From assembly GCA_011620345.1 (NCBI GenBank), contig WOZJ01000050.1, forward strand, positions 66,495-130,494: DNA of 64,000 nucleotides, written 5' to 3'. Made by a program: the position numbers and the translations under genes. This document shows positions 9,463 to 62,660 of the stretch, piece after piece. The notes beneath the pieces were generated by a model. That model was not told the origin of the DNA. It was given only the letters and a program-made list of their open reading frames with translations, and ran no database searches. This DNA is from Nitrospirota bacterium. GTDB taxonomy: Bacteria > UBA2233. The stretch's first letter is position 1. Each line of letters opens with the position of its first letter.

Positions 9463-10292
9463 TCGCCAGATAGACTGGTGTCCTCAGGGGTCACCGTGCG
9501 CTCGGGCGGCCTTGGCGCCCCTTCAGGCGGGGCGGCTTCCCAGGAAACGGGCGGGCCCAAGGTTGCCTTGCGCTTCCGAAACAGTCCGAAGTACGAGGCG
9601 ATTAACGCCCGCTTCAGCCGTTGAATTCCGAGCGCCGGGTCTACCCCTTTTGGACATGCTTCGGAACATGCACCCGCCAAATGGCAGTTCCAGACGCCGT
9701 GAGGCCTGTCGAGAGACTCTTTTCTTTTTGCAAACCCTTCATCGCGGTTATCGGCACTGTAGCGCCAGGCCTGGGCAAGCGCCTGCGGACCCAAGAAGGT
9801 GGGGTCGGAGGCGCAGGTTGGGCAGCCAGAGACGCAAATCCCGCACTTGATGCAGTAACTGAATTTCAGGAACGCTTCGAGTTCGTCTGGACGCTGCACA
9901 ATAGGCCGCGTGTCGTCCGGCTCTTCGCTCCTGATTAAGTACGGAAGGACGGTCCTGTGGCGATCAAAGAGGCTGCTTAAATCGACTACGAGGTCTTTGA
10001 CCACCGGGAAGTTGGGCAGCGGCTTGATGATAAGCTCTTGCTTGCCGATCTCGTGGATTTGGGTATGGCATGCGAGGTAGGGGTAGCCGTTGACGAACAT
10101 CGCGCAACTGCCGCAGATTCCCATTCTGCAAGAGGCCCTGAAGGCGAGCGAACCGTCCAGGTTTTCTTTGATGAACATGAGGGCGTCTAGTATGGTCATT
10201 CCCTCTTTTTGCGGAACTTCGTACTGTTCGATCCTTGGCGGCAACCCATTGGAAGCGTACCGCTGTACCTTGACGGAAACCCGTCGTTCCAT
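9459..10292 (-). CDS. sdhB: succinate dehydrogenase/fumarate reductase iron-sulfur subunit
   Basis: CRMGICGSCAM ([2Fe-2S]) plus two Cys clusters CIKCGICVSGCP / CHLAGACSEACP. It carries an unusual Pro-rich C-terminal tail of about 35 aa. Confidence 0.9.
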   Translation of the reverse strand: MERRVSVKVQRYASNGLPPRIEQYEVPQKEGMTILDALMFIKENLDGSLAFRASCRMGICGSCAMFVNGYPYLACHTQIHEIGKQELIIKPLPNFPVVKDLVVDLSSLFDRHRTVLPYLIRSEEPDDTRPIVQRPDELEAFLKFSYCIKCGICVSGCPTCASDPTFLGPQALAQAWRYSADNRDEGFAKRKESLDRPHGVWNCHLAGACSEACPKGVDPALGIQRLKRALIASYFGLFRKRKATLGPPVSWEAAPPEGAPRPPERTVTPEDTSLSGD

Positions 10293-10315
10293 TCGCCCAC
10301 CTCCATAAGGCTAGG

Positions 10316-10678
10316 TTAAACCAAGAAAAACCCGACACTCACGGCAGTTCCGAGAAAGAACAAGAACAGCCCAAGGCTCCAAACGAGCATATTGATGGAA
10401 GATAGCGTGCGGCTCGAGGCCCATACCTCCATCAAAACCGCTCGAAGCCCGTAGAAGCCATGGTAGAGGGCCAAGCCTAGGAACACGACGTAGAATGCCA
10501 CGAACAAGGGAGCATGGCCGCGTTTGAGAACCTCTTGAAACACAAGGGGGTCTTTGTAGCCCATGCCAAAACGCGGCAAGAGGGTGTCCATGTGCATCCC
10601 AAGCATGTGAACGCCAAGGAGCGCGACCAAGAAAAGCCCCGTAAAGAGTTGGAAAAACCATCCGAGCCCTTCTTTCAT
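10316..10678 (-). CDS. sdhD: succinate dehydrogenase membrane anchor subunit (SdhD-like)
   Basis: Small 3-TM hydrophobic protein between sdhC and sdhB. Start moved to MKEGLGW (10678), which is preceded by AAAGGAGG. Confidence 0.6.
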   Translation of the reverse strand: MKEGLGWFFQLFTGLFLVALLGVHMLGMHMDTLLPRFGMGYKDPLVFQEVLKRGHAPLFVAFYVVFLGLALYHGFYGLRAVLMEVWASSRTLSSINMLVWSLGLFLFFLGTAVSVGFFLV

Positions 10679-22514: not shown

Positions 22515-23540
22515 CTAGTTGATCGTCCAGGTCTCGAGCCCGTCGAACAGCGCCATGAAAGAGTTGTCCTTCGCTTTGGCTTTTGCTTTCTTGACTTGAC
22601 CGTCTAGGATTTCGTCGTAGGCTGGGCTTTGAACGTTTCTAAAAATGCCCATAGGAACGGGAAATTCCGGGTAGGTCATGCCAGAGACTAGGAAGGCATA
22701 CGCCGGGTCTTGGAGCCCTGATTTATGAACGAGAAGGCGCTCTTTTGGGGCCTCAGAGGCGGGGACGACCCTTGGCGACATTTCCTCTGAAATAACGGCA
22801 TTTTCTTTGTCTTTGCCGAACAGAAGCGGCTGGCCTTCTTCTAGGTATAGCAAGTGGTCGGGCCTCGATTCCTTGGAAACGATCGGGTCAAACACAGAGT
22901 CGTTAAAGACTACGCAATTCTGCCAAATCTCGATAAAGGCGGAGCCTTTGTGCAACGCCGCCTCTTTCAAAATAGCCTGGAGGTGCGGTCCGTCGACATC
23001 GAACGCCCTCGCCACGAACGTCGCTCCGGCGCCCAAGGCAAGCCGAAGCGGGGAGAACGGGTAGTCTGGAACTCCGTAGGGGGATGATTTGGTAACCTGC
23101 CCCATTTGCGTGGTGGGAGAGTATTGTCCCTTCGTAAGGCCGTATATTTCGTTGTTGAACATGACGATCTTGAGGTCCAAGTTCCTACGGAGCGCATGGA
23201 TCAAATGGTTCCCCCCTATGCTCATGGCGTCTCCGTCGCCCGTCATCACCCAGACGCTCAACTTTGGGTTTGCAAGCTTCACGCCCGTGGCGACCGCCGG
23301 TGCCCTGCCGTGGATGCTGTGGAGCCCGTAGGTGTTCATGTAGTAAGGGAAACGGCTCGAGCATCCTATCCCCGATACGAAAACAAAGTTCTCTCTGGGG
23401 GTGTTCAACTCAGGAAGTATCTTTTGGATGCTTGCCAGGATGGCGTAATCTCCGCAGCCGGGACACCACTTCACCTCCCCGCCTGGAATAAGATCTTTTC
23501 TCGTGAACTTCGGTATGGATGCCGATTCCTGCATTTTCAT
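22515..23540 (-). CDS. korB: 2-oxoglutarate:ferredoxin oxidoreductase beta subunit (TPP-binding), two-subunit Kor type
   Basis: ...WCPGCGDYAIL..., ...GIGCSSRFPYYMNTYGLHSIHGRAPAVATG..., GDGDAMSIGGNHLIHALRRN (TPP/Mg-binding GDGx motif). Confidence 0.85.
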   Translation of the reverse strand: MKMQESASIPKFTRKDLIPGGEVKWCPGCGDYAILASIQKILPELNTPRENFVFVSGIGCSSRFPYYMNTYGLHSIHGRAPAVATGVKLANPKLSVWVMTGDGDAMSIGGNHLIHALRRNLDLKIVMFNNEIYGLTKGQYSPTTQMGQVTKSSPYGVPDYPFSPLRLALGAGATFVARAFDVDGPHLQAILKEAALHKGSAFIEIWQNCVVFNDSVFDPIVSKESRPDHLLYLEEGQPLLFGKDKENAVISEEMSPRVVPASEAPKERLLVHKSGLQDPAYAFLVSGMTYPEFPVPMGIFRNVQSPAYDEILDGQVKKAKAKAKDNSFMALFDGLETWTIN

Positions 23541-25402
23541 GCAACGACTCCTTCAAAAACTTGGTGGACAAATTCTACGATCTCTTGCGCTCGTATAGGA
23601 ACCCCTAGGACACGATTGAACGGGATGGTCTCGATCAAATACGTTGCCCGGAGGATTCTGGAGAGCTGGCCAAGGTTAATTTCGGGGACGATCACTTTTT
23701 TGAAGCGCTTGAGGACCTCGCCCAAGTTCCCAGGCAACGGGTTTAGGTAGCTCAAATGGACCTGGGCGACGGGAATGCCGCTACGGTTAAGCTCATCGAC
23801 GCTCTGGGCGATCGCCCCGAACGTCGAACCCCACCCGACCAAAGCCACCTCAGAGTCGGGGCTGCCTAGCACCTCGACGTCGGGAATGTCTTGCTGAACC
23901 CTGGCGATCTTCTCTTGCCTCGTAAGAACCATTTTCTCGTGATTGTCGGCATCGTAGCTTACGCATCCTGTCAAGGAGTCTTTTTCAAGGCCTCCAATTC
24001 GGTGTTCCAGGCCCGGCGTTCCGGGAATCGCCCACGGCCTTGCAAGGGTTTTCGGATCCCGCAGATAGGGGTAAAAGCCGTTCGGGTCCGTTCGTAACTG
24101 AACTTTTATCTCGGGAAGTTCGTTGGGGCTAGGGATGCGAAATGGCTCCGAGCCGTTTGCCAGGTAGCTGTCCGAGAGGACAATTACGGGGATCATGTAC
24201 TTGGTGGCGATTCTGACAGCCTCGTATGCCATGTGGAAACAATCGGCCGAGTTCTTCGCGGCCAGGACGACGACTGGGGCCTCGCCATGCCGGCCGTAGA
24301 TGGCCTGCATGAGGTCGGATTGCTCGGTCTTGGTCGGCAATCCTGTCGATGGCCCACCCCTTTGGACGTCCACGATGACTAACGGGATCTCAAGCATGAG
24401 GGCAAGACCAAGCGCTTCTTGTTTGAGCGACAAGCCAGGACCGGAAGTGGACGTTGCAGCGATCATTCCAGCAAAGCTAGCCCCGATGGCCGAGCAAATA
24501 CCCGCAATTTCATCTTCAGCCTGGAAGGTGACAACATTTAGGTGCTTTAGCTTGGCCAGCTCATGAAGAATTTCTGATGCGGGCGTGATCGGATAGCTGC
24601 CTAAAAACAGCTCAAGCCCGGCCTGCTTTGCAGCCGCGACAAGCCCGTAAGCAATGGCTTGATTGCCTGTTAAATTAGTGTACAACCCTGGGTTCATCCT
24701 TGCCCGAGGAATATCGTAGAGAGGGAAAGCGCTAAAAATTTCGGCGTTTTCTCCGTAACGATAGCCCGCCACAAGGGTCTTTTCGTTTGCCTCCATAATG
24801 GCAGGATTCTTGGCAAACTTCTTTTTGATCCAGTCGATCGTGGGCTCGATTTTCCGGTTGAACATCCAAGAAATTAGGCCGAGCGCGAAGAAATTCTTGC
24901 AGCGCTCCGCTTGGGCCGGGGTTAAGCCTAGGTCGTTTACGGCAAGCTGGGTAAGCTTGGTGATCTCGACCTCGTAGAGGCGGTAGCTGGACTTGATACG
25001 GTCCAAGTCTTCCTTGGTCAAACCGGCCTTTTGGAGGTTACGCTCTGTAAGGCTCGAGGTGTTCAAAAGCACGATTCCGCCATCTTTGAGCCCCTTGAGG
25101 CCTACTTTGAGGGCTGCGGGGTTCATGGCGACGAGGACGTCTGGGTTGTCTCCTGGCGTGTAAACATCGGATGCCCCGATCTGGAGCTGAAACCCGCTTA
25201 CGCCGTTCAGGGTTCCAATCGGGGCCCGGATTTCTGCGGGATAATCTGGAAAGGTGGCTAGGTCGTTTCCCATCCAGGCGGCTTCCGTTGCAAAAAGGTT
25301 CCCTATCAGCTGCATGCCGTCGCCGGAGTCGCCCGCAAAGCGTACGGTAACTTTGTTGACAATCGTGCGTTCTTGGCTTGCAAGGCCCGAATCGGATGGC
25401 AT
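23537..25402 (-). CDS. korA: 2-oxoglutarate:ferredoxin oxidoreductase alpha subunit (gamma-alpha fusion), Kor type
   Basis: N-terminal gamma-like domain ...VRFAGDSGDGMQLIGNLFA... followed by alpha domains ...GSYPITPASEILHELA.... Start at ATG 25402 with AAGGAGGAG RBS; the track start at 25450 is a TTG with no RBS. Confidence 0.85.
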   Translation of the reverse strand: MPSDSGLASQERTIVNKVTVRFAGDSGDGMQLIGNLFATEAAWMGNDLATFPDYPAEIRAPIGTLNGVSGFQLQIGASDVYTPGDNPDVLVAMNPAALKVGLKGLKDGGIVLLNTSSLTERNLQKAGLTKEDLDRIKSSYRLYEVEITKLTQLAVNDLGLTPAQAERCKNFFALGLISWMFNRKIEPTIDWIKKKFAKNPAIMEANEKTLVAGYRYGENAEIFSAFPLYDIPRARMNPGLYTNLTGNQAIAYGLVAAAKQAGLELFLGSYPITPASEILHELAKLKHLNVVTFQAEDEIAGICSAIGASFAGMIAATSTSGPGLSLKQEALGLALMLEIPLVIVDVQRGGPSTGLPTKTEQSDLMQAIYGRHGEAPVVVLAAKNSADCFHMAYEAVRIATKYMIPVIVLSDSYLANGSEPFRIPSPNELPEIKVQLRTDPNGFYPYLRDPKTLARPWAIPGTPGLEHRIGGLEKDSLTGCVSYDADNHEKMVLTRQEKIARVQQDIPDVEVLGSPDSEVALVGWGSTFGAIAQSVDELNRSGIPVAQVHLSYLNPLPGNLGEVLKRFKKVIVPEINLGQLSRILRATYLIETIPFNRVLGVPIRAQEIVEFVHQVFEGVVA

Positions 25403-25450
25403 ATCGCTCCTCCTTAAAGGATTGAGGCGGGAAGCCCGCTTATGAGACAA

Positions 25451-25474
25451 GGAGCGGCCTCCATAGGCCGCTCC
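25451..25474 (-). promoter_or_regulatory. stable hairpin at the oor-kor junction (oor terminator and/or 5' leader of kor) adjacent to a TATAAT box
   Basis: GGAGCGGCC-tccata-GGCCGCTCC (9-bp stem). A minus-strand TATAAT sits at 25480-25485, immediately upstream of the hairpin. It lies about 50-70 nt upstream of the korA start. Confidence 0.4.
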
Positions 25475-25609
25475 TTTCTATTATACAACCAAACGCACGG
25501 AAAAAAAGAGTATCGACACCTCTTACGGAAGGATTGGCCGCAAATCGCTGCCTTTTTGTTTCTTTTCTAAAATGCCAGCCAGACTTGCTTTGCGGCGAGG
25601 TGGCACGAT

Positions 25610-26164
25610 TTAGTTCGCCACGTAGCGTTCGAGCCCGTAGGTGTATCCCATCTCGAACGCCTTGAGGTTTAGAGCCTCCGTCCCTTTGGGGACTGAGCTT
25701 TCCACCGCCTGCTTCATCGCATCCTTCGAGACAATACCTGTGGTTGCAGTGAGAAACCCTAGCATGACGATATTCGTGACCATCCTGCGGCCGGCCTCCT
25801 CGGCTAGCCGGGTTGCTGGAATGGCGAACGTTCGTAGTGCGGGTAAGGCTTTTTCAAGCTTGACGAGCTCTTCTTCGATTAGGAGCGTTCCTTCGGGCTT
25901 GAGAGAGCTGGCGTATACATTATAGGCCTCCTGCGACATGGCTACGAGAATGTCTGCTTGTGTCGTGTAAGGATAGAGAACCTTCCCCTCTTCGAGCACA
26001 ACCTGGGCACTACAAGCGCCTCCCCTGGCCTCAGGTCCAAAGCTCTGCGTCATGGCGGCTTCTTTCCCCTCGAACAGGGCCCAGGCCTTTCCTAAGATGA
26101 TGCCCATCAAGATGACGCCCTGACCGCCGAACCCAGCAATCCGTATTTCGATGCGTTTATCCAT
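25610..26164 (-). CDS. 2-oxoacid:ferredoxin oxidoreductase gamma subunit
   Basis: ...IRIAGFGGQGVILMG... is the gamma-subunit N-terminus. 184 aa. Confidence 0.85.
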   Translation of the reverse strand: MDKRIEIRIAGFGGQGVILMGIILGKAWALFEGKEAAMTQSFGPEARGGACSAQVVLEEGKVLYPYTTQADILVAMSQEAYNVYASSLKPEGTLLIEEELVKLEKALPALRTFAIPATRLAEEAGRRMVTNIVMLGFLTATTGIVSKDAMKQAVESSVPKGTEALNLKAFEMGYTYGLERYVAN

Positions 26165-26167
26165 TGC

Positions 26168-27049
26168 CTATGCCCCCGCGACTGCTTGTTTTCCGCCCTT
26201 TAGCAGGCCTGCGTAGTGCTCTTGGTAGGCGTCGTAGTACTCCTTTTTCTCGATGTCGAGAAACTTGCCGATCGTGACCTTGTCCTGGTGTCGAAGGTCT
26301 ATGCCGACATCTTTGGTATCGGCCCCGTTTTGTATCACGCAGTGCTCCTTGTAGTATTTCAGCTCTTCGACGGCCCCGCCAAGGCGATTGCGTCTTAAGT
26401 AAATTGTGGGGCAGGGGGCAAGGATTTCCACGAACGAAAACCCTTTTTTCTGAAGTGCTTCCAGTATGGCCTTTTTGGTCTGGACGACGTGGTAGGCAGT
26501 CCACCTGGCCACGTAAACGGCCCCGGAAGAAGCGGCGAGGTGGGGGAGGTTGAACGGCTCCTCAAACACGCCATACGGGGCAGTCGTTTCTATGCTTTCT
26601 TTTGGGGCCGTCGGTGTTGCTTGGCCTCCCGTCATCGCGTAGGTGAAGTTGTTTACCAGGATGACCGTGAGGTCAAGGTTGCGTCTTGCCGCGTGGATAA
26701 AGTGGTTCCCCCCGATACCGGCGAGGTCGCCGTCGCCGGAGTACACGACGACATGGAGTTTTGGGTTGGAGAGCTTAAGCCCCGTTGCGAACGGGATGGC
26801 CCTGCCGTGGGTTGTGTGGAACGAATCGAGCTTCAGGTAACCCGCAACCCGGCCCGTGCATCCTATCCCTGAGACGATGGCAAGCTCATCGAGCGGGATA
26901 CCGCAGTCCATGACCGCCCTGGCAAAGCAGTTGACGGTCGTCCCGATGCCGCAACCAGGACACCAGATATGAGGCATGCGTTCCGTCCGTAAGAAGGGAA
27001 CAACCGGGTTGAGCGGTAGAGTGCATTCGGTGGAATCGTTCGAATTCAT
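26168..27049 (-). CDS. 2-oxoacid:ferredoxin oxidoreductase beta subunit (TPP-binding)
   Basis: ...WCPGCGIG..., ...SGIGCTGRVAGY..., GDGDLAGIGGNHFIHAARRN. Confidence 0.9.
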   Translation of the reverse strand: MNSNDSTECTLPLNPVVPFLRTERMPHIWCPGCGIGTTVNCFARAVMDCGIPLDELAIVSGIGCTGRVAGYLKLDSFHTTHGRAIPFATGLKLSNPKLHVVVYSGDGDLAGIGGNHFIHAARRNLDLTVILVNNFTYAMTGGQATPTAPKESIETTAPYGVFEEPFNLPHLAASSGAVYVARWTAYHVVQTKKAILEALQKKGFSFVEILAPCPTIYLRRNRLGGAVEELKYYKEHCVIQNGADTKDVGIDLRHQDKVTIGKFLDIEKKEYYDAYQEHYAGLLKGGKQAVAGA

Positions 27050-28227
27050 GAAAGGGCCTCCTTGATCGCATGAAAAATATCTTGAGGGTCATGAACGCCA
27101 CCGCCCGGATGACCTACTGGAACGACCGGGCAACGCCCCTGGACGGCGCGCTCGACTTCGTTGGCCACCTGGCCTCGCAGGTTAAGTTCGGGGACGACGA
27201 TTGCCCGAACCCGCGTAGCGAGCTCCTGGATGCGCTGGCCGGGGAAAGGCCATACCGTGATTAACCGAAAGAGGCCCGCTTGAATGCCATCTTGCTTGGC
27301 GAGTTCTATCGCCTTTAGTGCCACGCGCGCGGAAATTCCGTAGGAAATCACCGCGACTTCCGCGCCTTGAAGGTTGCGCTCTTCCCACTTCCATATTTTT
27401 GGGGCGTTTCGTTGGATCTTTTCGATAAGCCTTACGACGAGCTGTCTTTGGGTTGCAAGGGTGGTAGATGGGTAGCCTCGTTCGTCGTGCGTTAAGCCGG
27501 TTACGTGGAACCGGTAGCCGTCTCCCGCCTTGACCATTTCGGGAACGAGGTCCTCTCCGGGGGCGTAAGGGAGGAATTCTTCCGGGGGCTTTTTCGTAAA
27601 GCGCCGCCCGAGCACAGAAATTTCCCTTGCATCCGGAATGACAAGCTTCTCTGTCATGTGGCCGACACACTCGTCCATCATGAAAAACACGGGAACCCGG
27701 TAGGCTTCTGCAAGGTTAAAAGCCTCGATCATGAAATCAAAGCATTCCTGGACGCTTGAAGGACAGAGCGCGATCGCTTCGTAATCCCCGTGCGATCCAA
27801 AGCGGCACTGAAGCATGTCGCCTTGAGCGGGAAGCGTTGGAAGGCCGGTCGATGGGCCTGCGCGCTGGACATCGACAAAAACACATGGAGTCTCCGTCAT
27901 GGCGGCGTACCCCGTATGCTCCATCATGAGCGAAAACCCAGGGCCTGAGGTGACCGTCATGGCCTTGAGTCCTCCCCAAACCGCACCTTGCAGGCAGATG
28001 CTCGATGCGATCTCGTCTTCCATTTGGATGAACATGGCGCCTACGTGTGGCGCCCGTTCGGCGAAGCGTTCGACGATCTCGGTCGAGGGTGTGATTGGAT
28101 AGCCAGCGGCAAACCGACAACCGGCAGCGATCGCACCTTCGCAGGCAGCGTGGTTGCCATCCATAAAATGAGTGCCCGAAAGAACTGCCTCGGGCTCGGC
28201 ATGCTGGTAGAGAAGCTCAGCCATCAA
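27046..28227 (-). CDS. 2-oxoacid:ferredoxin oxidoreductase alpha subunit
   Basis: ...GNHAACEGAIAAGCRFAAGYPITPSTEI... is the alpha-subunit N-terminus. 393 aa. Confidence 0.9.
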   Translation of the reverse strand: MMAELLYQHAEPEAVLSGTHFMDGNHAACEGAIAAGCRFAAGYPITPSTEIVERFAERAPHVGAMFIQMEDEIASSICLQGAVWGGLKAMTVTSGPGFSLMMEHTGYAAMTETPCVFVDVQRAGPSTGLPTLPAQGDMLQCRFGSHGDYEAIALCPSSVQECFDFMIEAFNLAEAYRVPVFFMMDECVGHMTEKLVIPDAREISVLGRRFTKKPPEEFLPYAPGEDLVPEMVKAGDGYRFHVTGLTHDERGYPSTTLATQRQLVVRLIEKIQRNAPKIWKWEERNLQGAEVAVISYGISARVALKAIELAKQDGIQAGLFRLITVWPFPGQRIQELATRVRAIVVPELNLRGQVANEVERAVQGRCPVVPVGHPGGGVHDPQDIFHAIKEALS

Positions 28228-28469
28228 GACGCCTCCTTCATTTCACGCTTGAACGCGTAGATGGCAAAATCGGGACAGTACATGCCGCACAGATCGCACC
28301 CCGAACACTTTTCCGGATCTTTGAGCTCCGGGAAGTGGTAACCCTTTTGGTTGAAGGCGTCTGACATGGAAAGGACATGAACAGGACAGAATTCAACGCA
28401 AACGGTGCAACCTTTGCACCGTTCCTGGGTGATCATGACCACCCCTTCGAAGCGCCTTTTGCGCTGCAC
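28224..28469 (-). CDS. 2-oxoacid:ferredoxin oxidoreductase delta subunit (2x[4Fe-4S] ferredoxin)
   Basis: CKGCTVCVEFCP and CSGCDLCGMYCP clusters. GTG start at 28469 (RBS AAGGGGGA); the alternative ATG is at 28436. The operon order delta-alpha-beta-gamma matches oorDABC-type enzymes. Confidence 0.8.
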   Translation of the reverse strand: MQRKRRFEGVVMITQERCKGCTVCVEFCPVHVLSMSDAFNQKGYHFPELKDPEKCSGCDLCGMYCPDFAIYAFKREMKEAS

Positions 28470-28559: not shown

Positions 28560-29201
28560 TTAAAACGGCATACGTTCTTGGGAGGCCTTTTTTGCTGAGC
28601 GTCGTCGCTTGATCAAGAAAACGGCAAGGCTCGCGATTGCCGCGCCCACAAGCCCAAGTCCTGCCGATAGACTTAGATAGGCCTGAAAAGCTTCGTAAGA
28701 GCGGTAGAAGAAATACCCCATGAACGTGAGCGATGTTGCCCAAAGGAGGGCGCTGGCTAGCTCTACGACAAAGAACGCCGCTGCAGCCATGTGAAACATC
28801 CCGGCAAGCAGCGGTACGATGCACCGGAGCGGCCCGATGAATTTACCTAGAACAAGCGCCCAGACGCCGTAACGCGCGATGAAACGCTTGCCCATCTCGA
28901 AGGATTCGGGCCTTAGACTAGCCCTTTTGAGCAGCCAAGAGCTTTTCCTTCCGACAAAGAAGCTAAACGTATCCCCCAAGAAGGCCCCCAGGCTTGCGAC
29001 GAGAATCAGCCAGATGGGGCTGAACGCGCCGTGGAACGCCAGGAACCCAGCGACGACGAGCAAGACCGTTCCCGGAAAGGCGAGGCTCACGAACGCGAGC
29101 GATTCGGCAAACGAGAATGCGAACACGGCCAGATAACCTAGGTCTTGGTGGGCGCTTAGCCATTGGGTCAGCCCAGCAATCGTCACGGCGTAACCTTCCA
29201 A
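28560..29201 (-). CDS. DedA/SNARE-associated family membrane protein
   Basis: ...LAVFAFSFAESLAFVSLAFPGTVLLVVAGFLA... GDTFSFFVGRK... matches the DedA (TVP38/TMEM64) signature and TM layout. Confidence 0.8.
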   Translation of the reverse strand: MEGYAVTIAGLTQWLSAHQDLGYLAVFAFSFAESLAFVSLAFPGTVLLVVAGFLAFHGAFSPIWLILVASLGAFLGDTFSFFVGRKSSWLLKRASLRPESFEMGKRFIARYGVWALVLGKFIGPLRCIVPLLAGMFHMAAAAFFVVELASALLWATSLTFMGYFFYRSYEAFQAYLSLSAGLGLVGAAIASLAVFLIKRRRSAKKASQERMPF

Positions 29202-30004
29202 TCCTTGACCATCCTAGAATGGGCAGAGCAAAGAGGAATGTCCTGCGAAAGGCCTGCGTTTTGGGCCTCATCAGGCCCGTAAAGGGCGATCAACTCATGG
29301 TGCCAATGCGCGTTGTGCAAGCTGCACCTTGCATCGTCACAAAACGCGTTGCCCGTTCGTAAATACGCAAGCGCTTGAAGCGCAAGCCCGGCAACGACCC
29401 GAGGCAGCCTTGAATCCCCATGATCGATGAACAGGGCCTTGAAGGCTCTATTGAGGCCGGCCGGGTCCAACCCGGATCGCTTCAAGAGGTAGTATTCCCT
29501 TGGCTTTGCAGGGGCAAGAACGATGCCTGGAATCGAGATGAGCGCCGGGAAGCCTAAGACATTCATCCGCAAATGGTAACGGCGGTCCGAAGGTTCGAAC
29601 GTTGCCAGCAAGTCGGGCAAAAGCACTACAGGAAGGCTTGATAGGCGGGAAAAACCGGCTTGCTTCAGCAATGGCCGCAGAAAAACTTGAAGCAAGGCCC
29701 CCTCGTAAGGAATGCCGTAAGGTTTTTTTTCCGGGCTGGTCAAAAACCGGCCTTCAAAGGCGACCTCTGCCGGGAAGGGTTCTACGCTTTCGTTAGGGCC
29801 TACCTTGGCCGTAAGCTCTTTGATTCGCAGCTTGGCGAGCATCCCCGCGAGCGTTTCTTTGTCGGCGTTTTTTTCTTCCAAGATAACGCGGTATACATAG
29901 GGCGCGAAAGCGGGGAGGGGAGAGCCCGTTTCCTCGATGGAGGCCTTTAGCTTACGGGCTTCTCCCCCTAGGAGCTCTTCGGCCCCTAATACGACCCAGT
30001 CCAT
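29183..30004 (-). CDS. uncharacterised protein with C-terminal Cys/His cluster, in an operon with thi4 and thiF
   Basis: 273 aa with no recognisable motif except the C-terminal segment CDDARCSLHNAHWHHE...PLCSAH (possible metal site). It overlaps dedA by 19 nt and starts 20 nt after thi4, so co-transcription is implied. Confidence 0.5.
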   Translation of the reverse strand: MDWVVLGAEELLGGEARKLKASIEETGSPLPAFAPYVYRVILEEKNADKETLAGMLAKLRIKELTAKVGPNESVEPFPAEVAFEGRFLTSPEKKPYGIPYEGALLQVFLRPLLKQAGFSRLSSLPVVLLPDLLATFEPSDRRYHLRMNVLGFPALISIPGIVLAPAKPREYYLLKRSGLDPAGLNRAFKALFIDHGDSRLPRVVAGLALQALAYLRTGNAFCDDARCSLHNAHWHHELIALYGPDEAQNAGLSQDIPLCSAHSRMVKDWKVTP

Positions 30005-30023
30005 GGCCGCTTCTTGTTTCTCG

Positions 30024-30821
30024 CTAACGCCCTATTTTTAGGCTTTCCAGGATTGTCTCGGCCACGCGCTTGCCAGAAAGAAGCATACCCGAGAACGTCG
30101 GCCCCATTCTTGGGATTCCATACGTCGTCGTTACGGACATGCCGCAGACGAAAAGCCCCGGGTAGACCTCCCCCGTGTGTTCGACAACAAGGTCCTCGGA
30201 GGCCTCGACCCACATGGAGCCGTGCCCTGGCACCTTGAGCAACCCCTTGGATTCGAGCATCTTGACAACGAGGGCATCATGACCCGTCGCGTCCACGACG
30301 ATTTTCGTTTCCAGGGCGATTGGGTCCACGCAGGTGATTTCTCTCGGTAGCGCCCTGACAGGCGTCCAGTTGACGACCACGCCCTGAACACGGTTGTCTC
30401 TAAGGACGACGTCATCGAAGATCGTCATGTTTGCAAACTTGACCCCAGCATCGCAGGCGGATGCGATGAGTTTTGAGCATGCGTGAGGCCCGTCGGCTAC
30501 GAAAAGACCCTCTTGAGCCTTTTCGTAGGGCACGCCGATCTCATCGAGCACTTTCTCGCCCGGAGCACGGAACGTCACCTTGTTTAGCAGGTATCCCCCG
30601 ATCCAGAACCCGCCGCCCAGATAGTTGTTCCGCTCGACGATGAGCGTTTTTAACCCTTGCCTTGCAAGGTCCCTCCCGGCTATCAGCCCGCTCGGGCCGG
30701 CACCAACGATGATGCAGTCAGACTCTACATACTCGACGAACTGCTTGGCAAAGGTATTGACGATAGCCCTGGTGATTTCCTTTTCCCCTACGGGGGCAAA
30801 CAAACGACCCTCTTGCGCCAC
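30024..30821 (-). CDS. thi4: Thi4-family thiazole synthase (His-type, non-suicidal/sulfide-dependent class)
   Basis: ...[19 protein letters not shown]... (FAD/NAD fold). ...[12 protein letters not shown]... has His at the position of the yeast active-site Cys. ...[29 protein letters not shown]. Confidence 0.85.
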
Positions 30822-30887
30822 TACGCACTCCCAAAGATTTAATTTAAGGATTTGCTAAAACACCTCTTCCATTTTATCCTGCCGGGA

Positions 30888-31625
30888 TTAGCCCTGGCAA
30901 GCGATACAACCGGCCAGTTTTACAACACGGATCCGGGTGCATTCGAGCGAAAGCGTTCGGATAAAATGAATGCTCCCTGCCGTTGAAGAAGGGAGGCCCA
31001 GTAGCCATTTAAGAGCCTCGAGCGCTTGAAGGACCCCGAGAAGCCCCGGCGTAGTTCCGATCACCGGGAAAGGGCTCGAGGCGGCGGGCGGCCTGCGTTT
31101 TCCCAGATAGCAGGCATAGCAGGCCGTTTTTCCTGGGACGAACAGGCCGACCTCGCCGTCAAACCCGTGGACGGCGGCATGAACGAAAGGGATGCGAGCT
31201 CTGAAGCAGGCCTCGTTAAGAAGGATCCGAGATGGAAGGTTGTCTAGGCAATCTAGCGCGATATCGATGTCGCAAAGCAGGCGTTCTGCGCTTTGGGAAT
31301 GAAATTCTTCCTGAAATGCCTCGATCGCCACCGCAGGGTTGGCTTTGGTTAGCTTGTCTTTTGCCGATTCGACCTTCGGCCTTCCTATGTCGGAAGACGT
31401 ATGGAGGGTTTGCCGGTTCAAGTTGGAAGCCTCCACCCGGTCGCGGTCGATCAGCCGAAGCTTGCCGATTCCGGCGTAAGCCAAGTACGTTGCGGCCGGG
31501 CTCCCCAACCCGCCCACGCCGATGAGGGCTACCGAGGCGTTCTTCAGGCGTTCCTGGCCTTCTTCCTGAACCTCGGGCAGGAGCAATTGCCGCTGGTAGC
31601 GTTCATGCTCCTGCTCGGTCAGCAT
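30888..31625 (-). CDS. ThiF/MoeB-family E1-like adenylyltransferase
   Basis: ...RYQRQLLLPEVQEEGQERLKNASVALIGVGGLGSPAATYLAYAGIG...DRD.VEASNLNRQ... C-terminal CxxC pairs (CYACY...CIACQ). Confidence 0.8.
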   Translation of the reverse strand: MLTEQEHERYQRQLLLPEVQEEGQERLKNASVALIGVGGLGSPAATYLAYAGIGKLRLIDRDRVEASNLNRQTLHTSSDIGRPKVESAKDKLTKANPAVAIEAFQEEFHSQSAERLLCDIDIALDCLDNLPSRILLNEACFRARIPFVHAAVHGFDGEVGLFVPGKTACYACYLGKRRPPAASSPFPVIGTTPGLLGVLQALEALKWLLGLPSSTAGSIHFIRTLSLECTRIRVVKLAGCIACQG

Positions 31626-31731
31626 CTTTCCAATTCCTGGTCATCAAATAACATAAGCGAGCGCCGTCGGTCGTGTACTTACATCTCAATTCTAGAGGCA
31701 GAAGCATCCTTCGGGCAAGGCCGCGGCCCTG

Positions 31732-33600
31732 TTACTCTTCTAGTGTCGAAACGTCTCCCGTATCAAGCCCTAGCTCTTTCGCCCTCAAGAGCCTCCTTAA
31801 AATCTTTCCGCTCCTCGTTTTTGGCAAATTGTCCATAAAAAGGATACTTTCTGGCTTCGCGATAGGACCGACTTCGTGGCCGACGTGCGCCTTGAGCTCT
31901 TCTTCGAGAGCTATGGAGGGGGAGAACCCTGGTTTTAGTGCGACGAAGGCCTTGATCACGTTACCTTTGATGTCGTGCGGGACACCGATCACGGCCGCCT
32001 CGGCCACAGCAGGATGGGAAACAAGCCCGCTTTCAACCTCTGCCGTGCCGAGCCTGTAGCCAGATACCTTGATAATTTCGTCCGAACGCCCGATGACCCA
32101 GAAGTACCCGTCTTCGTCCAGCCTTGCCGTATCGCCGGTAAAGTATTTTCCTGGAAATTTACTGAAATAGATCCGCTGAAACTCTTCCGGGTCTTTGTAG
32201 AGTGTCCTGGCAAGTGAAGGGAAGGGCCGTGTAAGGACAAGGTAGCCCTCCTCGTTCGGGCCGCAGGGTTCGCCCGATTCCGTGAGAATCTCTGCTCCCA
32301 TTCCAGGCAGAGGCTTGGCGCATGAGCCGGGCTTAAGCGGCGTCTCTGGAAGGGGAGAGATGCAGATCATCCCGGTTTCGGTCTGCCAGTAGGTGTCCAT
32401 GATGGGGCACTGCCCATCGCCGACCGCTCGATGGAACCATTTCCAGGCGGCAGGGTTGATGGGCTCGCCAACGCTGCCTAAGAGCCTTAGCTGCTTCAAG
32501 TCATGGCGCTTGGGCCAGGCATCGCCGTAACGCATCAACCCGCGGATGGCCGTGGGAGTCGTGTAGAAGATGCTGATGCCGTACTTGGAAATGAGATGCC
32601 ACCACCTGTCTGGGTAAGGGGTGGATGGCCCGCCCTCGTAAAGCAAGAGCGTGGCGCCGTTTATCAGGGGGCCGTAGGTCACGTAGGTATGACCCGTAAT
32701 CCAACCTGGGTCTGCCGTACAGAAGTAGCGGTCTTCGTCTCGGATATCGAACACCCATTTGGTCGAGCAGTACGCCCCGACCATATAGCCGCCGTGGACA
32801 TGCACGACGCCTTTGGGCTTGCCCGTGGTGCCCGAGGTGTAGAGGATAAACAGCGGGTCTTCGGCATCCATTGGCTCAGTTTGGACCAAATTGGCCAGCT
32901 TGAGGCTCATCAGGTCGTGGTAGAAGTAGTCACGGCCGGGCTCCATCGAGACCTCCTGGCCGATGTGCTTGACCACGATGACGGACTCTAAGCTTGGCAC
33001 CCTCTTGATGGCCTCGGTTGCTATTTCTTTGAGCGGGACAACCTTTCCGTTCATGTATCCGCCGTCCGCCGTGATCAATAGGCGTGATTCCGCTGACATC
33101 ATCCTCTCTCTTAGGGCATCCGTGCTGAAGCCTCCGTACACGACGCTGTGGACGGCGCCGATTTTGGCGGTTGCGAGCATTGCGATGACCTGCTCGGGAA
33201 TCCTGGGCATGTAGATCGTGACGCGATCGCCCTTGTTGATGCCCATGCTTTTTAATACGGTGGCAAGGCGTGTCACTTCCCGGTTCAGCGCATGGTAGCT
33301 AAGCGTCCTCGTTTCACCGTTTTCGCCCTCCCAGATGATGGCAAGCTTGTTCTTTCTCCACGTTTTGGCGTGGCGATCGAGCGTGTTGGCTACGATGTTG
33401 CATTTCCCGCCAAGGAACCACTTTCCCGTAACGCCGTTTCCTTCAAACACGGCTTGAAAATCCTGGAACCACTCCAGCTCGCGGGCTATCCCGGCCCAAA
33501 AATCGATCGGGTCCTCCTCGGCCTTTTTCGAGAGCTCCTCGTAGGCTGGCCGATCGGGACGCGATAACGTATCGGGCGGGAGATAAACTTCTGTTGTCAT
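31732..33600 (-). CDS. acs: acetyl-CoA synthetase (AMP-forming)
   Basis: ...YTSGTTGKPKGVVH... (AMP-binding motif), ...WWQTETG..., ...GDTARLDEDGYFWVIGRSDEIIKVSGYRLGTAEVES.... Start placed at ATG 33600 (MTTEVY), which is preceded by AGGATGGG; the alternative ATG at 33630 lies inside the palindrome. Confidence 0.85.
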   Translation of the reverse strand: MTTEVYLPPDTLSRPDRPAYEELSKKAEEDPIDFWAGIARELEWFQDFQAVFEGNGVTGKWFLGGKCNIVANTLDRHAKTWRKNKLAIIWEGENGETRTLSYHALNREVTRLATVLKSMGINKGDRVTIYMPRIPEQVIAMLATAKIGAVHSVVYGGFSTDALRERMMSAESRLLITADGGYMNGKVVPLKEIATEAIKRVPSLESVIVVKHIGQEVSMEPGRDYFYHDLMSLKLANLVQTEPMDAEDPLFILYTSGTTGKPKGVVHVHGGYMVGAYCSTKWVFDIRDEDRYFCTADPGWITGHTYVTYGPLINGATLLLYEGGPSTPYPDRWWHLISKYGISIFYTTPTAIRGLMRYGDAWPKRHDLKQLRLLGSVGEPINPAAWKWFHRAVGDGQCPIMDTYWQTETGMICISPLPETPLKPGSCAKPLPGMGAEILTESGEPCGPNEEGYLVLTRPFPSLARTLYKDPEEFQRIYFSKFPGKYFTGDTARLDEDGYFWVIGRSDEIIKVSGYRLGTAEVESGLVSHPAVAEAAVIGVPHDIKGNVIKAFVALKPGFSPSIALEEELKAHVGHEVGPIAKPESILFMDNLPKTRSGKILRRLLRAKELGLDTGDVSTLEE

Positions 33601-33625
33601 TGGAACCCATCCTAGTTGTTCATCA

Positions 33626-33654
33626 AACATTAGTATTTACTATATACTAATGTT
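33626..33654. promoter_or_regulatory. 29-bp AT-rich palindrome upstream of acs (candidate operator)
   Basis: AACATTAGTAT-ttactat-ATACTAATGTT: perfect 11-bp arms. It shares TTAGTAT/ATACTAA half-sites with the elements at 28512 and 47852. Confidence 0.5.
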
Positions 33655-62487: not shown

Positions 62488-62564
<77 letters not shown>

Positions 62565-62576
62565 CTCCAACCCTTC

Positions 62577-62660
62577 GCGAGAGTGGCGGAATGGCAGACG
62601 CGCTAGACTTAGGATCTAGTGGGACTACCCGTGGGGGTTCAAGTCCCCCCTCTCGCACCA
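62577..62660 (+). tRNA. tRNA-Leu (anticodon TAG)
   Basis: GCGAGAG/CTCTCGC acceptor stem. Anticodon loop CTTAGGA, long variable arm, encoded CCA. Confidence 0.85.

Follow-up and report, generated by a model that had tools for sequence, protein, structure and literature searches.

Within a 64,000-nt stretch of contig WOZJ01000050.1 from a Nitrospirota bacterium (hereafter the window, meaning the whole stretch that was analyzed), four neighboring genes are encoded on the minus strand: a thiF/moeB-like gene, thi4, an open reading frame (ORF) of 273 a.a., and dedA. An earlier note on this DNA had described four same-strand genes that are tightly spaced or overlapping, and this layout is borne out, coordinates included: thiF and thi4 are separated by 66 nt, thi4 and the 273-a.a. 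ORF by 19 nt, and the latter overlaps dedA. The four-gene operon of the note is a putative one: the DNA from ~35.2 kb down to ~22.5 kb is encoded entirely on one strand, and no convincing terminator was found between dedA and the downstream ferredoxin/OFOR genes. Promoter-like sites occur on the minus strand upstream of thiF (TTGCCC-18-TAGAAT, 31689..31718) and at the thiF-thi4 junction (TTGCCA-18-TAAAAT, 10/12 matches, 30871..30900); both are consensus matches only, and weakly supported ones, given that shuffled sequence is expected to yield 2.8 ± 1.7 such sites and the scanned region has 6. No ThiS, ThiG, or TPP riboswitch was found within the 64-kb window. The locus is a typical thiF/thi4 (Cys-type)/DUF6775 module of a Nitrospirota bacterium, DUF6775 being the family of the 273-a.a. 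protein, with a lineage-specific dedA attached.

The first gene of the module (30888..31625, minus strand) encodes an E1-like adenylyltransferase of the ThiF/MoeB type (245 a.a.; PF00899, E = 3e-73, 229 of 238 model positions), which has two CxxC pairs and lacks a rhodanese domain. It is not assignable to ThiF, MoeB, or UbaA, as every NCBIfam equivalog scores under its cut-off (250.6 against 449 for MoeB NF006444; 205.5 against 275 for ThiF TIGR02356). As to a carrier of the ThiS/MoaD type, the 64-kb window contains neither a plausible 50–130-a.a. ORF with a GG C-terminus nor a ThiS homolog. A ThiF-like gene is present in 26–27 of 80 DUF6775 loci (fetched locus, up to 10 kb on each side), and ThiF has been reported in 30% of suicide-Thi4 neighborhoods (Oliveira-Filho et al., bioRxiv 10.1101/2025.09.23.678117; PMC13325395).

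The second gene (30024..30821, minus strand) encodes a Thi4 thiazole synthase of 265 a.a., counted from a GTG at 30821 (PF01946, E = 1.8e-71, 240.6 bits; TIGR00292, 265.9 bits against a cut-off of 148.3; E = 5e-59 against 4Y4N). This GTG is preceded at 7 nt by a GGGAG Shine-Dalgarno-like sequence; an alternative TTG start at 30803 would yield 259 a.a., the length at which the gene is called in the close relative L082. Alignment to solved Thi4 structures pairs Cys164 (REITC164VDP; codon 30330..30332, minus strand) with yeast Cys205, the cysteine that donates the sulfur and that directly precedes M-D-P (yeast C205S crystal construct 3FPZ). In the same column, Arabidopsis Thi4 (1RP0) has a Cys (SCMDP), the archaeal sulfide-using enzymes 4Y4N, 6HK1, and 4Y4M have a His (LHIDP or LHVDP), and 7RK0 has a Met. 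The earlier note had read the His of ATGHDA (His181, 30279–30281) as the replacement of the yeast suicide Cys, and had placed the enzyme in the sulfide-using class. The ATGHD motif, however, is present in all aligned Thi4s and is conserved in both classes, and the actual counterpart of the yeast residue is Cys164. On these two grounds the window Thi4 is assigned by motif to the Cys-type (“suicide”) class (EC 2.4.2.60). Assignment to the sulfide-dependent His-type class (EC 2.4.2.59) was rejected, since a Cys stands where 4Y4N, 6HK1, and 4Y4M carry His and 7RK0 carries Met. Whether prokaryotic Cys-type Thi4s are truly suicidal has been questioned (Oliveira-Filho et al., PMC13325395).

The 273-a.a. 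protein (29183..30004, minus strand) is a member of DUF6775 with an archaemetzincin fold. No recognizable motif had been noted in it apart from a C-terminal Cys/His cluster, yet it matches PF20565 (DUF6775) with 171.9 bits (gathering cut-off 27; model positions 41–240 of 259) and PF22529 (DUF7001) with 157.3 bits (cut-off 27), both of which are carried by 54/54 database homologs. DUF6775 is a single-domain family with ~570 representatives in many phyla, and is labeled a probable metallopeptidase in Pfam. The Cys/His cluster itself is real and family-wide, with C222, C227, and C259 conserved in 100% and H262 in 98% of 147 diverse members. Nor is the protein undescribed: Pfam contains the family, and a study of suicide-Thi4/DUF6775/ThiF clusters has published the link to Thi4, a predicted archaemetzincin-like fold, and the Cys3His site (Oliveira-Filho, Van Gelder, Obe, Voiniciuc, Wilson, and Hanson, bioRxiv 10.1101/2025.09.23.678117; ACS Omega 2026, PMC13325395). 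By sequence, the protein has no match to the Peptidase_M54 Pfam model at E ≤ 0.01, and neither a single-sequence nor a family-profile search found an archaemetzincin in the PDB.

Archaemetzincins (MEROPS M54; PDB 3LMC, 2X7M, and 3ZVS; AMZ-tk TK0512) are active zinc proteases with the published fingerprint HEXXHXXGXXHCX4CXMX17CXXC. DUF6775 shares with them the metzincin/archaemetzincin fold, and below the active-site helix it has a putative second metal site of the archaemetzincin form, G-x3-C-x4-C-x-(M/L) ... C-x2-(C/H), which in 3LMC is Cys3His as well (Oliveira-Filho et al., PMC13325395). When the G-x3-C-x4-C-x-(M/L) anchor is used to set the register, a degenerate metzincin signature extends from Q210 to H262 (29219..29377, minus strand). 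The positions of the H-E-x-x-H-x-x-G-x-x-H motif are occupied by A211-L212-x-x-L215-x-x-G218-x-x-F221, while C222-x4-C227-x-L229 and C259-x2-H262 are kept as a putative Cys3His site with a wider spacing, of 31 residues in the window and ~21 in most members, compared with 17 in archaemetzincins. At position 211, 115 of 147 DUF6775 sequences have Ala; position 212 holds Val, Ile, or Leu but Glu in none, position 215 varies, and position 221 is Phe in 95%; the Met of the Met-turn is replaced by Leu in 95% of the family (Leu229 in the window). DUF6775 also differs from archaemetzincins in an N-terminus longer by ~75 residues and in helical insertions that precede the active-site helix. With Ala, Leu, Leu, and Phe standing where archaemetzincins have three His zinc ligands and a catalytic Glu, DUF6775 is almost certainly not an active protease of the conventional metallopeptidase type.

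A set of polar residues has nonetheless been retained at metzincin substrate- and zinc-binding positions (among them H144 in 99%, H233 in 97%, and Q210 in 95% of 147 members), which suggests that the old cleft was remodeled rather than lost. R142, H144, and R146 fall on the presumed edge strand and Q210 on the old active-site helix, whereas N231 and H233 correspond to Phe136 and Asn138 of AfAmzA, the S1′-wall residues beside the catalytic zinc; D197 (97%) and E84 (96%) are conserved as well. Going by metzincin topology and the register of the motif, and not by measured distances, H144, H233, D197, and E84 may come together in one site.

The pairing of DUF6775 with Thi4 was examined from the DUF6775 side in the best 80 of at least 588 matches, which are not an unbiased sample. 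In 65 of the 73 evaluable loci, drawn from many bacterial and archaeal phyla, thi4 lies directly upstream on the same strand, and the two genes share a 4-nt start/stop overlap in 14 loci. All of the full-length neighboring Thi4s are Cys-type (70/70, from 80 DUF6775 loci), and their active-site loop, R[EQ]I[TS]CVDP[VI], varies very little. From the Thi4 side, DUF6775 has been found to be the commonest neighbor, present in 26 of 40 representative genomes (65%) and in roughly two-thirds of the >400 that were surveyed (Oliveira-Filho et al., PMC13325395). DUF6775 is the downstream partner of Cys-type Thi4, dedicated to it and as a rule coupled to it in translation. The proposal of the earlier note that the 273-a.a. 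protein is an accessory of the thiazole route is thus supported as far as the accessory is concerned, given the 65/73 loci and the 26/40 Thi4 genomes; its linkage to thi4 is strongly conserved, and the case of an unrelated family in an unconserved neighborhood was not encountered. The novelty does not stand, as the DUF6775–Thi4 pairing and its clustering with ThiF are already known (Oliveira-Filho et al., bioRxiv 2025; ACS Omega 2026). Compared with those clusters, the window has the same Pfam family, a Cys-type Thi4 partner, the frequently co-clustered ThiF, and a predicted archaemetzincin-like fold in which a Cys3His site is present and HEXXH is missing; it is a further example, from Nitrospirota. 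It differs in that no ThiS or other sulfur-relay gene is nearby and in its dedA, which is absent from their tables. New here are the survey from the DUF6775 side (65/73 with thi4 directly upstream; 70/70 Cys-type), the residue-by-residue map of the lost site, the conservation of the polar cleft, and the contexts without thi4.

The other recurrent neighbors, again in the best 80 of at least 588 matches, are sulfur-assimilation and sulfur-relay genes rather than metal transporters: NIL-ferredoxin (40/80), ThiF (26–27/80), CysK-type (23/80), class-V aminotransferase (23/80), HcyBio (19/80), and ThiI-type PP-loop genes (19/80). In the 5 loci without thi4, DUF6775 still adjoins NifS or CysK and/or a ThiI-type gene.

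DedA stands outside this conserved module. The gene (28560..29186, minus strand) encodes a DedA/VTT-domain membrane protein of 208 a.a. (PF09335, E = 9e-18, 65.3 bits against a cut-off of 33.9), which scores under the cut-offs of both the NCBIfam DedA and UptA equivalogs. GTG 29186 is a better start than TTG 29201, giving a 4-nt GTGA overlap with the DUF6775 stop codon and a GGAAGG Shine-Dalgarno-like sequence 6 nt upstream; independent gene calling in the 92%-identical relative L082 likewise gives a 208-a.a. DedA with a 4-nt overlap. The only relatives in which DedA adjoins DUF6775 are the two closest, L001 (1 of 80 reference-genome loci) and L082; no homolog was found in the other 79 reference-genome loci (best 80 of at least 588). 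It is a lineage-specific addition.

The explanation favored here, tentatively and with somewhat less than even confidence, is that DUF6775 is a non-proteolytic, stoichiometric metal-handling partner. DUF6775 would be made at ~1:1 with Thi4 and would dock on it through the remodeled cleft. The Cys3His site would have a structural role. Thi4 requires a loosely bound metal, and this Fe(II) or Zn(II), which it would use in transferring sulfur from Cys164 to the thiazole, would be kept or handed over by a second, labile site of the His/His/carboxylate type. ThiF may supply sulfur to the same step, together with a carrier encoded elsewhere. Proteins with a TRASH domain adjoin non-Cys THI4 genes in many archaea and bacteria and have been proposed to support the metal cofactor (Joshi et al., 2021, PMC8454699). 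They are small, Cys-rich metal-binding proteins encoded, like the putatively metal-binding DUF6775, directly beside Thi4, which suggests that each Thi4 class has its own small metal-binding neighbor. They differ in their unrelated fold and motif (C-x2-C-x19-22-C-x3-C), in the class of Thi4 that they accompany, and in their neighborhoods, which contain Co/Ni genes (PMC8454699) where those of DUF6775 contain sulfur genes. The Cys3His site, being inherited from the archaemetzincin zinc finger, may be purely structural, which counts against metal handling. So does the only experimental test, in which no metal was detected by ICP-MS, though the protein came from inclusion bodies, all DUF6775 constructs tried so far being insoluble (Oliveira-Filho et al., PMC13325395). 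Also against it is the recurrence of sulfur genes instead of metal transporters around DUF6775; together with the retention of NifS, CysK, or ThiI-type genes in loci without thi4, this points to sulfur at least as much as to metal.

That sulfur signal is the starting point for a rather unlikely alternative, in which DUF6775 is a sulfur-side helper or reactivase that lets Cys-type Thi4 work more than once. It might catalyze or guide the return of sulfide or persulfide sulfur onto the dehydroalanine at Cys164, or it might be an adaptor through which a thiocarboxylate or persulfide donor (ThiF/ThiS, NifS, or ThiI-type) reaches the active-site loop of Thi4, lodged in the peptide-binding cleft of DUF6775. 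In favor of this, only Cys-type Thi4s are linked to DUF6775 (70/70), the Thi4 loop is uniform and a metzincin cleft is suited to an extended peptide, and sulfur-mobilizing genes dominate the neighborhood, both in the 80 loci and in Table S3 of Oliveira-Filho et al.; in loci without thi4, DUF6775 is flanked by a ThiI-type PP-loop gene on one side and NifS or CysK on the other. A conceptual precedent for a non-suicidal Cys-type Thi4 is the sacrificial sulfur insertase LarE, also a Cys-to-dehydroalanine donor that is repairable by persulfide, although it belongs to another enzyme family and is without a DUF6775-type accessory protein. However, no conserved Cys able to carry a persulfide was found outside the metal site in 147 members, all three invariant Cys being putative metal ligands, and 1:1 translational coupling would be unnecessary for a catalytic reactivase. 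The metal-binding TRASH neighbors of non-Cys Thi4s suggest that metal is the common theme, and more than one turnover in prokaryotic Cys-type Thi4s is backed by indirect complementation data only (Oliveira-Filho et al., PMC13325395). An improbable further reading is that DUF6775 turns the “suicide” Cys-type Thi4 into a multiple-turnover enzyme through the remodeled cleft (H144, H233, D197, E84, R142, and R146), either by re-sulfurating the dehydroalanine at Cys164 or by co-delivering Fe and sulfur; if so, prokaryotic Cys-type Thi4s with a DUF6775 partner would not be sacrificial at all.

The same cleft could instead have been rebuilt as a hydrolase, its His, Asp, Glu, and Arg residues forming a new metal-dependent catalytic center, but this is doubtful. 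A single-turnover Thi4 retains its product and is costly to replace, and the proposed substrates are the adenylated thiazole (ADT), cleaved to thiazole phosphate and AMP for product release, or the spent, dehydroalanine-containing Thi4. The polar set conserved at cleft positions (H144, H233, D197, E84, Q210, N231, R142, R146, Y100, Y172, and S157) is unusually rich for a pure scaffold, its two conserved Arg with Tyr and Ser would fit a diphosphate or carboxylate ligand, and the Pfam label agrees. On the other hand, every member lacks the three zinc ligands as well as the canonical catalytic Glu, it is difficult to see why a protease would be produced 1:1 with the protein that it cleaves, ADT hydrolysis would be equally needed by non-Cys Thi4s, and neither these nor the eukaryotic suicide THI4s have been reported with a DUF6775 partner. 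Least probable by far is the version of the earlier note, an accessory of a sulfide-dependent His-type Thi4 acting with DedA for membrane delivery of sulfur or metal. The GTGA overlap does couple dedA translationally to DUF6775 in this lineage, and the matching NCBIfam Thi4 model is named “sulfide-dependent,” but the His-type premise fails for the window Thi4 and for the 70/70 linked Thi4s, no membrane segment is predicted in the DUF6775 model, and DedA is confined to L001 and L082 among the loci compared.

For the metal-handling explanation, HypA-type metallochaperones, which have a structural Zn-Cys4 site and a separate labile Ni site, offer a comparison. With no sequence or fold relationship between the two, the likeness is a functional analogy only: an inert Cys-rich site beside a possible exchangeable His/carboxylate site, inferred in DUF6775, in a protein encoded in the operon, or putative operon, of its client enzyme.

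The four minus-strand ORFs called in an earlier note are borne out, as are the families it had named for three of them, which Pfam matches identify as a thiF/moeB-like gene (30888-31625; ThiF PF00899, E = 3e-73), thi4 (30024-30821; Thi4 PF01946, E = 1.8e-71), and dedA (28560-29201 as first called; VTT/DedA PF09335, E = 9e-18). The fourth (29183-30004, between thi4 and dedA) encodes a 273-aa protein that had been described as lacking a recognizable motif apart from a C-terminal Cys/His cluster; it belongs to PF20565 (DUF6775, "probable metallopeptidase family"; 171.9 bits) and to PF22529 (DUF7001; 157.3 bits). No NCBIfam model matches this protein, and a search of PDB chains gave no relevant sequence match with either the single protein or a 50-sequence family profile; archaemetzincin relatives were recovered by fold comparison only. 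An exact look-up found no record of the window's own protein, and a 92% identical homolog (P0001) sits on a syntenic 82-kb contig. DUF6775 proteins are compact and single-domain (240-350 aa; 568 representatives at 50% identity), with no informative domain fusions among the best 150 of these 568. An apparent 641-aa DUF6775-MnmA fusion in an Elusimicrobia genome (locus L016, 9842-11767) is an artefact of a masked base (X) that joins adjacent genes, and the long ORF at another locus (L051) results from a spurious extension upstream through high-GC sequence. In the Elusimicrobia genome, MnmA (tRNA 2-thiouridylase) lies directly 3' of DUF6775.

The archaemetzincin fingerprint, HEXXHXXGXXHCX4CXMX17CXXC, contains three histidines that are the catalytic zinc ligands, a glutamate that is the catalytic base, and four cysteines for a second zinc. 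The register of the window protein against this motif is set by the anchor that it retains, G218-x3-C222-x4-C227-x-L229 and C259-x2-H262. The first His ligand thereby corresponds to A211 (Ala in 115 of 147 diverse family members), the catalytic Glu to L212 (Val, Ile, or Leu, never Glu, in the same 147), the second His ligand to L215 (variable), and the third to F221 (Phe in 95%). Because the ligand and Glu positions are never His-Glu, the peptidase site is missing family-wide, which makes an active archaemetzincin peptidase most unlikely. DUF6775 is a non-peptidase protein of the archaemetzincin fold in which a Cys3His site is kept (C222, C227, and C259, 100% conserved; H262, 98%). AMZ-tk (TK0512), considered as a characterized relative, has an intact M54 motif and falls outside DUF6775. 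Within residues 227-262 (29219-29326), the Nitrospirota lineage (the window protein and the homologs P0001, P0002, and P0004-P0007) carries an insertion of ~10 residues (…GPDEAQNAGLSQD…) that separates the second Cys ligand from the third. Members of this lineage also have His at 235, vs. Gln in 97% of the family, and Gly at 251, vs. Gln in 93%.

The 147 members share a conserved polar set comprising H144 (99%), H233, D197, Y100, Y172, and R146 (97% each), E84 (96%), and Q210 and R142 (95% each), and S157 and G160 are invariant (100%). N231 and H233 stand at Met-turn +2 and +4, the positions of Phe136 and Asn138 in the archaemetzincin AfAmzA, where they make the S1' wall beside the catalytic zinc. 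R142, H144, and R146 alternate along the fourth core strand of the structure model, which, by metzincin topology, would be the substrate-binding edge strand. Since conserved polar residues map to S1'-wall and edge-strand positions, the old peptidase cleft looks remodeled and conserved rather than decayed.

The neighboring Thi4 had been assigned to the His-type, sulfide-using class on the premise that the His of its ATGHDA motif replaces the yeast suicide Cys. This premise is wrong, as alignment to solved Thi4 structures and the yeast C205S construct rule out a His-type enzyme; the (A/S/T)TGH(D/E) motif is kept in all Thi4 classes in these alignments. At the residue level, Cys164 of the window Thi4 (REITC164VDP) aligns to the His of the archaeal catalytic enzymes 4Y4N, 6HK1, and 4Y4M (LHIDP or LHVDP), and this position is Met in Thermovibrio 7RK0 and Cys in Arabidopsis THI1 1RP0 (SCMDP). 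A control comparison of the yeast sequence with the PDB entry 3FPZ showed the two to be identical except at residue 205, which is Ser in this C205S construct and directly precedes M-D-P. Because Cys164 occupies the yeast 205/Arabidopsis Cys column, the window Thi4 is, judged by its motif, a Cys-type enzyme of the "suicide" class, which draws sulfur from its own active-site Cys. The NCBIfam model that it passes (TIGR00292) is named "sulfide-dependent adenosine diphosphate thiazole synthase." This name is misleading here, as automatic annotation would mislabel an enzyme whose active-site Cys marks it as Cys-dependent, and presumably would do the same to all 70 of the DUF6775-linked Thi4s considered below.

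With each species represented by a single genome, a scan returned at least 588 DUF6775 relatives, of which the best 80 loci were analyzed. These span Nitrospirota, Chloroflexota/Dehalococcoidia, Thermodesulfobacteriota, Elusimicrobiota, Clostridia, Omnitrophota, Planctomycetota, Hadarchaeota, Thermoplasmatota, Methanobacteriota, Nitrososphaerales, and others; the closest of the best 80 is from Nitrospirae bacterium UBA2233 (89% identity), which assigns the window to a member of Nitrospirota. Conservation of the thi4 neighborhood, a check proposed in the earlier note, was found: among the 73 of these 80 loci with sufficient upstream sequence, thi4 lies immediately upstream of DUF6775 on the same strand in 65, lies within 3 kb in 3, and is lacking from the locus in 5. 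The stop and start of the two genes overlap by 4 nt at 14 loci. All 70 full-length Thi4 neighbors in the best 80 loci have the Cys, within a loop that varies very little (R[EQ]I[TS]CVDP[VI]). The pairing is near-obligatory, directional (thi4 then DUF6775), and often translationally coupled. At one locus (L025, Deltaproteobacteria bin23 chromosome), the Thi4 ORF directly 5' of DUF6775 (9842-10663) diverges past REIT (REITELNKQ), suggesting that its reading frame is shifted or cut short at the active-site Cys. Another Thi4 ORF ~3 kb upstream is intact and Cys-type; a pseudogene, a duplication, or a misassembly could explain this arrangement. DedA, which had been proposed as part of the system, is ruled out as a member, since a homolog occurs only at L001 among the best 80 loci and at L082, the contig of the 92%-identical relative.

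The recurrent neighbors of thi4-DUF6775 are sulfur-incorporation genes. Within 6 kb at the best 80 of the at least 588 loci, they encode a NIL-ferredoxin (40/80; e.g., L007, 6049-6459), a CysK-type PALP enzyme (23/80), a class-V aminotransferase that is NifS- or SepCysS-like (23/80), the homocysteine-sulfur-incorporation protein HcyBio (COG1900; 19/80; e.g., L073, 11722-12933), a ThiI-type PP-loop protein with an NFACT-R_2 domain (19/80), a ThrC-like protein (13/80), and NadA (7/80); a ThiF-like protein, counted over the entire fetched locus (up to 10 kb each side), occurs in 26-27 of 80. The recurrence of NIL-ferredoxin and HcyBio places the thi4-DUF6775 pair inside a broader anaerobe sulfide-incorporation module. 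Even at the five loci that lack thi4, DUF6775 remains next to NifS or CysK, the ThiI-type gene, or both. The ThiI-type gene encodes a PP-loop ATPase of ~333 aa fused to the NFACT-R_2 RNA-binding domain and is often directly downstream of DUF6775 (L021, 5330-6331; L022, 6082-7080; L063, 2219-3337; L067, 1873-2880; and 15 further loci); it remains adjacent to DUF6775 where thi4 is missing. This ATPase may belong to the system itself or may instead thiolate tRNA, drawing on a common sulfur supply.

A full-text search for the Pfam names led to a single work, "Rethinking suicide Thi4 thiazole synthases" (Oliveira-Filho et al., bioRxiv 2025; ACS Omega 2026, PMC13325395), in which DUF6775 is the commonest gene clustered with suicide (Cys) Thi4, at 26 of 40 representative genomes and about two-thirds of more than 400; ThiF occurs near suicide Thi4 in 30% and ThiS in 20%. 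Their AlphaFold3 model of DUF6775 resembles the archaemetzincins 3LMC and 2X7M, with three Cys and one His and without HEXXH. Five recombinant DUF6775 proteins were insoluble, ICP-MS on the inclusion bodies detected no metal, and a role in metal-cofactor support was proposed (PMC13325395). The guess that the 273-aa protein is an accessory of the thiazole route was therefore right in substance, as the thi4 pairing attests, and mistaken in calling it undescribed, in its His-type premise, and in including DedA. The window is one more example of the published link and not a discovery, as the group behind that link already pursues the suicide question. The additions made here are the statistics from the DUF6775 side, the finding that the linked Thi4s are all Cys-type, the mapping of the lost peptidase site residue by residue, and the conservation of the cleft.

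We infer that DUF6775 acts stoichiometrically on or with Thi4. The preferred, tentative mechanism is that it is a metal-handling partner of Cys-type Thi4: the Cys3His site would be structural, and the remodeled cleft would contain a second, exchangeable site, formed by two conserved His and conserved carboxylate residues, that loads Thi4 with the loosely bound Fe(II) or Zn(II) it requires or keeps this metal in place. This model is favored because a small metal-binding neighbor accompanies each Thi4 class, DUF6775 the suicide enzymes and TRASH proteins the non-suicide ones (PMC13325395; likewise Joshi et al., 2021, PMC8454699, the published survey from which the comparison with non-Cys THI4 neighborhoods was taken), because DUF6775 has no free conserved Cys for carrying a persulfide, and because 1:1 coupling fits a single-use client enzyme. 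The main rival, a less likely one, is a sulfur-side role, in which DUF6775 would repair dehydroalanine or present a sulfur donor; the exclusive link to Cys-type Thi4 and the sulfur-rich neighborhood, also evident in loci without thi4, speak for it. Less probable still is a hydrolase with a rebuilt center, acting on bound adenylated thiazole (ADT) or on spent Thi4.

One suicide Thi4 protein yields only one thiazole, and its replacement in plants is estimated to cost 2-4% of biomass (Joshi et al., 2021, PMC8454699). If a dedicated prokaryotic partner supplies Cys-type Thi4 with metal or restores its sulfur, or services it in some other way, it could be moved into crops or engineered pathways and would also decide if the "suicide" Thi4s of prokaryotes are truly suicidal; the importance would become high if DUF6775 proved to make Cys-type Thi4 catalytic. 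The conserved polar cleft offers concrete mutagenesis targets (H144, H233, D197, E84, Q210, R142, and R146).

In the window, thiF and thi4 are separated by 66 nt, and thi4 and the DUF6775 gene by 19 nt. The dedA start is most likely GTG 29186, which overlaps the upstream stop by 4 nt (GTGA) and is preceded by GGAAGG at 6 nt; independent gene calling on L082 likewise gives a 208-aa product and a 4-nt overlap. The thi4 start is ambiguous, as GTG 30821 (265 aa) has a Shine-Dalgarno-like GGGAG 7 nt upstream and the L082 gene caller chose the equivalent of TTG 30803 (259 aa). Transcription of thiF-thi4-DUF6775-dedA as one operon is plausible; promoter-like matches lie 5' of thiF and inside the thiF-thi4 spacer, no convincing terminator was found 3' of dedA, and the same-strand run extends past dedA into two 2-oxoacid:ferredoxin oxidoreductase clusters. 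An Rfam scan of the window found no TPP riboswitch, so the thiazole genes are not under a recognizable THI-box; its sole matches were two adjacent plus-strand tRNA genes (62488-62561 and 62577-62657). The window holds no candidate ORF for a ThiS/MoaD-type carrier, and the other sulfur-module genes of DUF6775 loci are absent from it.

Just upstream of the thiazole genes lies an acetyl-CoA synthetase gene (31732-33630). Directly downstream of dedA, with no clear terminator before them, are two complete 2-oxoacid:ferredoxin oxidoreductase gene sets (22515-28469, minus strand), the first with a ferredoxin-like delta subunit, POR_N/PFOR_II, TPP_enzyme_C, and POR gamma, and the second a pair of POR/POR_N and TPP_enzyme_C; the arrangement at L082 (11536-17489) matches. 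These oxidoreductases are thiamine-diphosphate enzymes, and their closeness to thiazole synthesis genes may or may not be meaningful.
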